From: a virus
Taxonomy: Duplodnaviria; Heunggongvirae; Uroviricota; Caudoviricetes
Reading direction: 5' to 3' (one strand)
IMG/VR virus record: IMGVR_UViG_2880412407_000011
Length of the DNA stretch: 64,000 nucleotides
Positions within the stretch are counted from its first letter, which is position 1. Each line of letters opens with the position of its first letter. The position numbers were made by a program. This document shows, piece by piece, positions 33,301 through 36,300 of the stretch.

Positions 33301-36300
33301 TTACGAAGGTGTTACTGGTAACGTTAAGGTAATTTAACAAAGAGTCAGTTCCGGACTTTATAGTGTGCTCAGTTCATGGCCAAAAACGATTTCTGTGATA
33401 AATATTTTGAATATTATTTACAGGTAAATGGAGTGGGGCACATGGATAGAAATATTACAATAGAGTATGAAGTATATGCCCGTATTGTATGGGCAGAGAA
33501 GGCAAAACATGGTAATTCCGTGTGTTGCCATGATACCTGACTGGCAGAATTGTTGTTTGGTTTTGAGTATATAGTCAGCGTCTTTTGTTCGGTAATTGCT
33601 CTTTCAATTAAAATGCCAGATATGATTTGCTTTTCTTTGTTGTTTAGTTTTTTTGTATATTATTTTTATTGTTTTTATATAATTAGTTTTTTATTGTTGT
33701 CTTATTAAGGACGGTAAATTCAGGATGGCAGTCTGTAGATAAACGGAGGTTACTTATGCTACATGATCACCTGGCAGAATGTCTGGAGAAAAAAGGACTG
33801 TACCGGAGAGCAGCTGAACGATGGGCAAAAGTGATGGTACAGCTAAGTGATGACCAGAAAAGAAAAGTGGCGGCACAGAAACGAGCAGAGTGTTTGCGTA
33901 AGGCGCGCCGGACTCCGGTTTCACCGGTGAACCTGACCGAAATAAAACAAGCGGTCAACAGACTACATTCTGAGTTGGGAATGGGATTTGAAGAGCGGCG
34001 GGTATTCCGACGATATAAAGGGACAGGAGAACAGAATACGTCCGGAAACGCGCGGTCAAAAAAATGCTAAAAAATATCTGAGAGCGTTATTGCCTGTTAC
34101 CATAAGAAAAAGCGACTTTAGTGGTCGCTTTTTGTGTCATATATAAGTCGTTTAAGTAAACCTGTCTGAACAGGTTCTCTGGTCGTGTTTGTCTTTGTTG
34201 GGTACAAATTGAGAATATTTTTCATTAATTAATCTTCTTCTGCAGGCTTCAATAACCCACGCTGAAAAATTTCCTGAACCTTTCAGATCAAGAGCGATGT
34301 TAATTTGTTCAATCATCTGGTTTGGAAATCGGATGTTGCGGGTTGTTGTTCTGCGGGTTCTGTTCTTTGATGACATAATGTTGCCCATATTCAGTGTTGC
34401 TGATTTGTATTATCTGAAGTTGCTTTTACGTTAATTTGATGCAGATCAATTAATACGATACCTGCGTCATAATTGATTATTTGACGTGGTTTGATGGCGT
34501 AGATGCACGTTGTGACATGTAGATGATAATTATTATCATTTTGCGGGTCCTTTCCGGCGATCCGACCGGTTACGGGGCGGCGACCTCGCGGGTTTTCGCT
34601 ATTTATGAAAATTTTCCGGGGAAAATCATGTCGGTACTTCTCGAACATAACTATTTGTTTTTTCTAATATCGAATCCGTAAAGGTCCGACATGAAAACGC
34701 CTGAAAAAGTCATTTTCGGGCACTTTCATGTCGGACCCTGTATTTGTTGTGAGACTGTTTCATGAAGGTTAATAAAAAGAAACTTGCCGAAATTTTCAAC
34801 GTGGATCCGCGAACGATTGAACGCTGGCAGTCTCAGGGGCTCCCTTGCGTCTCCGGAGGTGGTAAGGGCGTTGAATCTGTATTTGATACCGCCACGGCAA
34901 TTCAGTGGTATGCGCAGAGGGAAGCTGATATCGAAAATGAAAAACTCCGTAAAGAGGTTGAGGATTACAGGGCTGCCAGCGAGGCAGATCTCCAGCCTGG
35001 GACTATTGAGTACGAACGCCATCGACTTACGCGTGCGCAGGCTGACGCCCAGGAGCTGAAGAATGCCAGAGACTCCGCAGAAGTGGTGGAAACCGCATTC
35101 TGTACTTTCGTGCTGTCACGGATCGCAGGTGAAATTGCCAGTATTCTTGACGGGATCCCTCTCTCAGTACAGCGGCGTTTTCCGGAACTGGAAAACCGAC
35201 ATGTTGATTTCCTGAAACGGGATATTATCAAAGCCATGAACAAAGCAGCCGCGCTGGATGAACTGATACCGGGGTTGCTGAGTGAATATATCGAACAGTC
35301 AGATTGATATTCTGCGGCGTGATGTACGCGCCGGGCTGCGAGCCCTGTTCAGGCCGGAGCCACAGACTGCCGTTGAATGGGCGGATGCCAGTTACTATCT
35401 CCCGAAAGAATCCGCATACCAGGAAGGGCGCTGGGAAACACTACCCTTTCAGCGGGCTATCATGAATGCGATGGGCAGCGACTACATCCGCGAGGTGAAT
35501 GTGGTGAAGTCTGCCCGTGTTGGTTATTCAAAAATGCTGCTGGGTGTTTATGCTTACTTCATAGAGCATAAGCAGCGTAACACCCTTATCTGGTTGCCGA
35601 CGGATGGTGATGCCGAGAACTTTATGAAAACCCACGTCGAGCCTACCATCCGCGATATTCCGTCGCTGCTGTCTCTGGCCCCGTGGTATGGCAAAAAGCA
35701 CCGGGATAACACGCTCACTATGAAGCGTTTCACCAATGGTCGTGGCTTCTGGTGCCTGGGCGGTAAAGCGGCAAAAAACTACCGTGAAAAGTCGGTTGAT
35801 GTGGCGGGTTATGATGAACTTGCTGCCTTTGATGAGGATATTGAACAGGAAGGCTCTCCGACGTTCCTGGGTGACAAGCGTATTGAAGGCTCGGTCTGGC
35901 CAAAGTCCATCCGTGGCTCCACGCCCAAAGTGAGAGGCACCTGCCAGATTGAGCGTGCAGCCAGTGAATCCCCGCATTTTATGCGTTTTCATGTTGCCTG
36001 CCCGCACTGCGGGGAGGAGCAGTATCTTAAATTTGGCGACAAAGAGACGCCGTTTGGCCTCAAATGGACGCCGGATGACCCCTCCAGCGTGTTTTATCTC
36101 TGCGAGCATAATGCCTGCGTCATCCGCCAGCAGGAGCTGGACTTTACTGATGCCCGTTATATCTGCGAAAAGACCGGGATCTGGACCCGTGATGGCATTC
36201 TCTGGTTTTCGTCATCCGGTGAAGAGATTGAACCGCCTGACAGTGTGACCTTTCACATCTGGACGGCGTACAGCCCGTTCACCACCTGGGTGCAGATTGT

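Follow-up and report, generated by a model that had tools for sequence, protein, structure and literature searches.

Arc and Mnt of phage P22 (PF03869) regulate divergent or overlapping promoters through palindromic operators, and in the Arc-operator complex the N and R residues of the Arc motif N-L-R-W-P contact the bases. A similar model is proposed here for YlcI, the product of a small gene in a 64,000-nucleotide stretch of a virus genome of the Caudoviricetes (IMG/VR record IMGVR_UViG_2880412407_000011), the whole of which is called the window below. The gene belongs to the YlcI/YnfO family and lies beside the cohesive end site (cos). At face value the finding is ordinary, as the family is catalogued but uncharacterised. 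The gene, the family and the position were already known, and the identical protein is annotated in hundreds of enterohaemorrhagic Escherichia coli (EHEC) genomes. No functional study of ylcI, ynfO or DUF3950 was found in the searchable literature, and a survey of phage-inducible chromosomal islands (PICI) of E. cloacae lists the family as an accessory protein only (PMC13612085).

The comparison of the locus with its homologues tips the balance slightly towards a stand-alone, putative ribbon-helix-helix (RHH) DNA-binding protein, which would be an autoregulated repressor and not an antitoxin. It would be made in the lysogen from a monocistronic gene and bound to the DNA at 34401-34500. This reading draws on the family membership, the protein-level selection and the solitary organisation of the gene, on the constrained DNA upstream of it, and on operator-like palindromes beside its homologues.

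Identity of the gene and its family

The first-pass annotation had placed a small gene at 34152-34388, with the strand unstated. The longest open reading frame (ORF) reaching 34388 is on the minus strand (34152..34388, 78 aa); the start used by the Prokaryotic Genome Annotation Pipeline (PGAP) for the identical gene is the second ATG, at 34376 (74 aa, MSSKNR...). Position 34376 is taken as the conserved start, because PGAP starts there and the upstream ATG of the window aligns with ACG in lambda. The protein scored above the curated cutoffs of both Pfam PF13132 DUF3950 (E=1.9e-18, 66.5 bits vs cutoff 25) and NCBIfam NF041551 YlcI_YnfO_N (34.4 bits vs cutoff 30), and it also matched phrog_949, a group of unknown function (E=2e-31). 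It is 100% identical to RefSeq WP_001303940.1, "YlcI/YnfO family protein". The protein is thus a member of the YlcI/YnfO family, as the earlier label "YlcI-like" had it. The family core motif (...K/R-N-I-R-F-P...N-F-S-A-W-V-x-E/D-A-C...) is present; among 26 diverse family members, I15, R16, F37 and V41 never vary, and at least 90% keep F17, S38, W40, A44 and C45.

The same DNA was found at 99.9% identity in the chromosomes of O157:H7 and O121:H19, where PGAP names a row of "PerC family transcriptional regulator", "YlcI/YnfO family protein" and "terminase small subunit". The family is small, with 106 representatives at 50% identity among 1.8 billion proteins, and many of these representatives are error-ridden copies of lambda control DNA. 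The GTDB assemblies of unrelated bacteria (Oceanobacillus, Streptomyces, Pedobacter, Pseudomonas and others; L093-L126) include contigs of ~3.5 kb or ~48.4 kb with a lambda ylcI-like ORF of 90% identity to the query core. These contigs look like contamination with lambda control or spike-in DNA, and many 'ena' proteins from the 3.5-kb contigs are frameshifted, error-ridden copies.

Selection on the core and the variable tail

Judged by its sequence variation, the ylcI core is coding and under strong purifying selection. The ratio of non-synonymous to synonymous polymorphism (pN/pS) was 0.07 for core codons 1-49 (19 distinct core sequences), and the nucleotide diversity at codon positions 1/2/3 was 0.030/0.014/0.142 (37 distinct sequences). 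Between the window and lambda, the core shows 15 synonymous and 4 non-synonymous changes; four other subfamilies gave pN/pS values of 0.04-0.25. The family matches, the variation at codon position 3 and the low pN/pS together confirm the small gene of the first-pass annotation as real.

Compared with lambda, the window has a mosaic joint inside the gene, at codon 45/46 (window 34230-34245). Past the joint, R46-R47-R48-L49 are kept by different codons, AGA AGA AGA TTA in the window and CGT CGG AGA CTA in lambda. Beyond residue 49-53 the C-terminal tail is hypervariable in sequence and length, and its type changes with the downstream module: the INEK... tail is always found with the PerC-type module, and the STESSGMNYIIK tail goes with the layout where Rz follows, with no PerC gene between.

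Solitary organisation of the gene

The window gene is monocistronic and solitary. In lambda, DLP12 and 80 IMG/VR loci, as in the window, the gene stands alone on the strand opposite to the late operon, and cos and the Nu1-type terS follow directly to its right. In the window no co-oriented adjacent ORF was found that could be a toxin gene; a terminator and then a convergent gene follow downstream. No conserved co-oriented neighbour was found in the 80 close loci, in 41 diverged loci (drawn from one genome per species) or with the second tail type, about 120 contexts. The Rfam search around ylcI gave no RNA, and only spurious miRNA-like matches on the hairpin of the 25-nt-arm inverted repeat in cosB. 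An 85-aa ORF upstream of ylcI (34391-34648) matched phrog_9395. This ORF was rejected as a gene and taken as conserved DNA: it runs across cosN, lacks a conserved start, and its diversity at codon positions 1, 2 and 3 is flat (0.062, 0.039, 0.056), with no codon periodicity.

Diverged homologues in satellites

Diverged homologues with 35-60% identity occur across Enterobacterales, and a lambda-type cosN is absent next to all of them. About 24 of the 41 lie in islands with a P4-type integrase, AlpA, the AntA antirepressor and a primase-helicase, as confirmed by Pfam. The YlcI-like gene of these satellites is the sole gene pointing the other way, divergent from a block of small genes and the primase. 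Perfect palindromes are located at fixed distances from its ATG, and the DNA between them is variable. One satellite subfamily has GTG(T/C)-N4-ACAC at about -100, -76 and -30; another has TGGTA-N2-TACCA at -45 and -11. In the locus L142, as read from the sequence, the first two palindromes seem to overlap a leftward promoter-like element (TTGACG-18-TATGGT), and the third the putative TATAGT of the gene itself. Palindromes in the homologues also overlap the gene's own -10 or start codon. The satellite arrangement is the one expected where a repressor controls both itself and a divergent operon.

Where the residues just before I-R-F of the putative ribbon differ, the inner bases of the palindromes differ too. 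Ribbon residues TTK are found with ...ATAC, (A/T)KK with ...GCGC..., (G/T)YK with ...TAAAC, STMK with GGTAGTTACC and STKK with GGTACGTACC. Ribbon and palindrome seem to covary, although the phylogenetic relatedness of the loci makes this no more than suggestive. For a dimer that would bind a two-fold symmetric site, these 12-14-bp palindromes give indirect support.

The window gene and the P4/PICI-type satellite genes share DUF3950, the layout of a reversed small gene and a similar palindrome spacing. In distance from the ATG, the window palindromes at -104/-73/-27 resemble the satellite operators at -100/-76/-30, and GATAAT at -38 resembles the satellite TATAGT at -34. The satellite genes differ in being 35-55% identical, in having clear repeated operators over a divergent promoter-like element towards the replication genes, and in not adjoining a lambda-type cos. 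The Rpp proteins of PICI were also considered as DUF3950 members and rejected, as they are winged-helix-turn-helix proteins.

In two proteins (P0193, P0213), DUF3950 is fused to the ~50 first residues of Terminase_2, its N-terminal DNA-binding part. The fusions lie in islands with integrase, primase, terS and capsid genes, which are similar to capsid-forming PICI (L003 4714-5103; L004 5590-6363). The L004 island has a second, unfused DUF3950 gene beside the fusion. It borders on a Terminase_2 fragment (61 aa) and an HNH gene of an adjoining prophage (8040-9776). That prophage carries a DUF3950 gene of its own (9576-9776), which lies shortly upstream of HNH/terS on the other strand. The terS of this prophage, or a site beside it, may have been where the island inserted. 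Other homologues are solitary in chromosomal contexts, e.g. in Salmonella arizonae and diarizonae. In Salmonella enterica subsp. diarizonae/arizonae (L130, L131 5980-6372), a 58-aa YlcI-like ORF lies between IpgD/SopB-like and C69 peptidase (pipD-like) genes, and is followed by a co-oriented, very hydrophobic ORF of 61 aa.

Predicted fold

Two AlphaFold2 monomer models of YlcI agree (mean predicted local distance difference test score 69-73, core 76-88), and both give an extended segment followed by two helices. The hhalign comparison with the Arc-family alignment gave a weak match (P=8.8e-4, probability 23%) in the register K-x-x-x-N-I-R-F-P-x-x-L-I-E vs K-M-P-Q-F-N-L-R-W-P-K-E-V-L-D, so that YlcI retains the N and R of the base-contacting motif of Arc. 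Single-sequence comparisons with Arc, ParG, NikR and Mnt gave P = 0.002-0.04, and six non-RHH controls gave P >=0.11. The HicB-like phrog_497 was matched weakly (E=0.008), in its DNA-binding end. No match was found in PDB sequences searched by phmmer and hmmsearch, no Pfam RHH or Arc match was found for the window protein, and no recurring RHH family appeared in a scan of 20 members; searches by fold gave no match either. A search that started from P0215, the most divergent member, reached a Firmicutes subgroup and no Pfam bridge. The RHH claim of the first-pass annotation thus gains from the models and the in-register Arc match, but not from Pfam or the PDB sequences; an RHH fold is likely, short of a demonstration.

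YlcI and the P22 proteins are alike in being small and phage-encoded, with N-x-R-x-P and then helix A in register (NIRFP vs NLRWP). However, the sequence relationship is marginal, and the P22 proteins are encoded at immI, whereas YlcI is cos-adjacent. With the RHH antitoxins (the C-terminal domain of HicB, RelB, ParD and CcdA), YlcI probably shares the DNA-binding fold, and also a disordered C-terminal region. It differs from them in that the window gene has no toxin gene or operon partner and its tail is not conserved.

DNA upstream and downstream of the gene

The nucleotide diversity (pi) of the non-coding block 34401-34500 was 0.040-0.047 in the 37 sequences, which is one third of the 0.142 at the third codon positions of ylcI and similar to that of the cosQ-cosN spacer. 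The flanks (34377-34400 and 34501-34544) are near-neutral, with a diversity of 0.10-0.11. The block contains an inverted repeat, palindromes and a -10-like element (Table 1); no second copy of the inverted-repeat arm beyond chance was found in the window. The chances seem evenly split between a block that serves as the ylcI promoter/operator region and an undescribed cos-associated element.

Several observations weigh against the autoregulated-repressor model. The best sigma-70 promoter on the ylcI strand scored 6.5, compared with a background mean of 7.1, and no good -35 is present. The three palindromes of the window have no common consensus, unlike those of the satellites, and their number is about the chance level for an AT-rich 190-bp stretch. 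The divergent promoter of the satellites has no counterpart in the window, and the conserved block could belong to cos instead.

On the other side of the gene, an intrinsic-terminator hairpin lies 19 bp past the ylcI stop codon, flanked by A5 and T5. Its RNA is predicted to fold on the two strands with -14.7 and -11.9 kcal/mol (z = -4.2 and -3.9); the hairpin was missing from the list of a simple terminator scan.

Table 1. Positions of ylcI, its predicted parts and the features around it in the window.
Feature	Position	Strand	Remarks
Rz/Rz1 lysis gene	32820-33293		
PerC-family, PchABC-type transcriptional regulator	33756..34070	+	104 aa; PF06069; convergent neighbour
Bidirectional intrinsic-terminator hairpin (predicted)	34107..34133	.	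AAAAAGCGAC-N7-GTCGCTTTTT; common to pch-type gene and ylcI
ylcI/ynfO-family coding sequence	34152..34376	minus	74 aa from conserved start
Hypervariable tail	residues 56-74		AlphaFold2: disordered
Helix B (predicted)	34212-34268		residues 37-55
Helix A (predicted)	34281-34322		residues 19-32
Putative beta-ribbon N14-I-R-F-P18	34323-34337		AlphaFold2: extended, residues 14-18
Basic N-terminal arm	residues 1-13		AlphaFold2: unstructured
Palindrome TCAGCAACACTGA	34391-34403		at -27, just outside block
Constrained non-coding block, proposed ylcI promoter/operator	34401..34500	.	from diversity in 37 distinct sequences
-10-like GATAAT	34409-34414	minus	at -38..-33
Palindrome TTGATCTGCATCAA	34436-34449		at -73
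Inverted repeat, 13-nt arms ATCAATTAATACG / CGTCATAATTGAT	34445-34457 / 34465-34477		
Palindrome ATAATCAATTAT	34469-34480		at -104
cosQ GGGTCCT	34545-34551	+	
12-nt cohesive end of cosN GGGCGGCGACCT	34575-34586	+	
Nu1-type small terminase subunit	34762..35307	+	PF07471 E=4e-91; PGAP 'terminase small subunit'; divergent neighbour across cos

Proposed function and alternative explanations

By analogy with the satellite layout, a repressor function would be the most likely one for the window gene. In the proposed mechanism, YlcI would form an RHH dimer and read a palindromic DNA site with its basic N-terminal arm and the pair of N-I-R-F-P strands. Helices 19-32 and 37-55 would form the dimer core, and the variable C-tail would be dispensable. 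The ylcI transcript, antisense to the late operon, might start in the conserved 100-bp region that separates ylcI from cosQ, and it would end at the bidirectional terminator common with the pchABC-type gene. Made from its own promoter in the lysogen, in the manner of a moron, YlcI would bind the upstream block and regulate itself. Late transcription of lambda is Q-antiterminated; after induction, such convergent, antisense late transcription may silence ylcI.

Among the alternatives, regulation of the adjacent moron (the pchABC-type gene) or of host genes, or an action in cis via an excludon, is unlikely, though it stands above the others. In its favour, ylcI and the pchABC-type gene converge on a common terminator, the tail type switches with the downstream module, and the K-12 ybcW-ylcI pair has been listed as a convergent transcriptional overlap, i.e. 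an excludon (PMC12288877). However, the core is the same whether the PerC module, the bor/p78/p79 module or Rz lies directly downstream, and therefore a module-specific target is unlikely; the single occurrence of the inverted-repeat arm in the window also argues against such targets. Quite unlikely is a packaging factor that binds the DNA left of cosQ and modulates terminase, for example in termination, or by protecting the prophage cos from the terminase of a superinfecting phage or a satellite. Such a role would agree with the constant place of the gene: lambda, DLP12 and 60+ loci all have it ~200 bp from cosN, while their Nu1 identity varies over 47-100%. It would also agree with the constrained block between the gene and cosQ, with the DUF3950 gene just upstream of HNH/terS in the L004 prophage type, and with the Terminase_2 fusions. 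Against it, the satellite and chromosomal homologues are not next to a lambda-type cosN, and the palindromes of the homologues overlap promoter-like elements, not cos. The published cos comprises cosQ, cosN and cosB, about 200 bp, and nothing left of cosQ is required (PMC4669245); the linkage to cos may also mean no more than that a short conserved block offers no joints for recombination.

The first-pass annotation had raised an antitoxin role and remarked that no partner toxin ORF was evident. The remark agrees with the lack of a co-oriented ORF in the window, of an Rfam RNA and of a partner in the homologues, and YlcI proved to be an orphan, with no toxin partner in any homologue context. 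An antitoxin role, orphan or type II, against a toxin whose gene lies nearby or elsewhere (in trans) is scarcely credible here, even if RHH domains are common among antitoxins, the weak phrog_497 match is HicB-like and a disordered C-tail is typical of antitoxins. There is no adjacent toxin gene, the upstream 85-aa ORF has no coding signature, the gene is followed by a terminator and a convergent gene, and the tail, which would be the toxin-binding part, is hypervariable and changes at the mosaic joint. A functionless relic, in which the ORF hitch-hikes with strongly selected cosQ/cosN DNA, is very improbable. It could account for the 92-94% DNA identity that the window shares with lambda over the stretch from codon 45 to cos; however, the core substitutions are overwhelmingly synonymous, the synonymous divergence in the gene exceeds the divergence of the adjacent non-coding DNA, and the family is under purifying selection in satellites and chromosomal sites without cos. 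The rivals were ranked overall with moron or host regulation before packaging, followed by the antitoxin and the relic, the last two being contradicted by the data.

The autoregulated repressor thus remains the favoured function. A bolder form of it, which is rather unlikely, is that the YlcI/YnfO proteins are unrecognised RHH master repressors of mobile elements: the copies in the P4/PICI-like satellites of Enterobacterales would hold the replication operon off via 2-3 palindromic operators, and the lambdoid copies, that of lambda included, would bind a 100-bp element outside cosQ. If true, a lysogeny-expressed repressor would be tied to the cos end, for example silencing or protecting the prophage cos/terminase region or interfering with satellites or superinfecting phages. 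The repressor model gives the YlcI/YnfO family a testable job, that of an autoregulated RHH repressor with predictable operators, which are best defined in the P4/PICI-type satellites. Useful by-products of the analysis are the missing lambda annotation, the satellite operator architecture and the constrained block beside cosQ. In EHEC, ylcI faces the gene of a PchABC-type activator of the locus of enterocyte effacement, and both end at one terminator, so that transcription of ylcI could influence a virulence regulator.

Copies in lambda and E. coli K-12

Lambda has a 64-codon ylcI homologue at 48109..48303, complement (= locus L002 2710-2904), encoding the protein MSTKNRTRRTTTRNIRFPNQMIEQINIALEQKGSGNFSAWVIEACRRRLTSEKRAYTSIKSDEE. 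No coding sequence is annotated for this ORF in NC_001416 or J02459, and the lambda reference annotation is therefore without a conserved gene under purifying selection 200 bp from the right end. Some newer records of lambda relatives annotate the counterpart as YlcI/YnfO. The ORF was also compared with the 'orf-64' of the literature, and this identity was rejected, as 'orf-64' is lambdap73, between Q and S. The window and the lambda right end are 91-94% identical between ~34243 and the cos end, a stretch that takes in the 5' two-thirds of the gene and, upstream of it, the non-coding DNA, cosQ and cosN. The two proteins differ at only 3 positions in residues 1-49; whereas the lambda protein has another tail, TSEKRAYTSIKSDEE, and lambda also has bor, p78 and p79.

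The K-12 proteins YlcI (DLP12, b4589) and YnfO (Qin) share ~90% identity with the window protein over residues 1-49. The K-12 ylcI gene is also on the minus strand, with the post-lysis accessory genes on one side and nohD/Nu1 on the other. The gene order in DLP12 is rzpD, borD(-), ybcV(-), ybcW(+), ylcI(-), nohD(+), the same as in lambda. The K-12 YlcI has another C-terminal tail, and ybcW/ybcV/borD lie downstream where the window has the PchABC-type gene.

Neighbouring genes and the cos region

The neighbour called PerC-like in the first-pass annotation is indeed a PerC-family gene (PF06069, E=5.4e-44, 148.8 bits vs cutoff 22.6), and the UniRef name for the exact protein is 'PchABC family transcriptional regulator'. 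The proximity of ylcI to cos also holds, given the positions of cosQ, the cohesive end and the Nu1 gene; but the description of ylcI as occupying the bor position does not, and the first-pass interpretation as a whole is supported in part. Lambda and DLP12 carry bor plus the ylcI homologue at the same cos-adjacent slot, and therefore ylcI has its own conserved slot beside cos. A search of the window for homologues of Bor, p78 and p79 found none; in this prophage the bor/p78/p79 module is replaced by an ORF at 33376-33540 and the pchABC-type gene. This 54-aa ORF (plus strand) matches phrog_2157 (E=3e-36) and has no PGAP annotation; a very AT-rich stretch (33550-33720) lies ahead of the PchABC-type gene.

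The lambda right end, 48502, aligns to window 34574, so the virion right end would be at 34574, 198 bp from the ylcI start codon. The definition of cosQ follows the published one (PMC4669245). The cosQ and the cosN cohesive end are invariant in the 37 sequences, and Nu1 identity is 47-100% among loci with the same ylcI core, cosQ and cosN. An R-like repeat, CATGTCGG(A/T)C, occurs three times in the cosB region: at 34626-34639, in inverted orientation at 34681-34694, and at 34725-34737. The second and third copies make up the inverted repeat with 25-nt arms. Just left of cosQ, a promoter-like element (GTGACA-16-TATCAT, 34512-34539, plus strand) points towards Nu1, with a score above the 90th percentile of the background. 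It overlaps a 17-bp palindrome, ATGATAATAATTATCAT, and its lambda counterpart is weaker (GTGATA...TATCAC).

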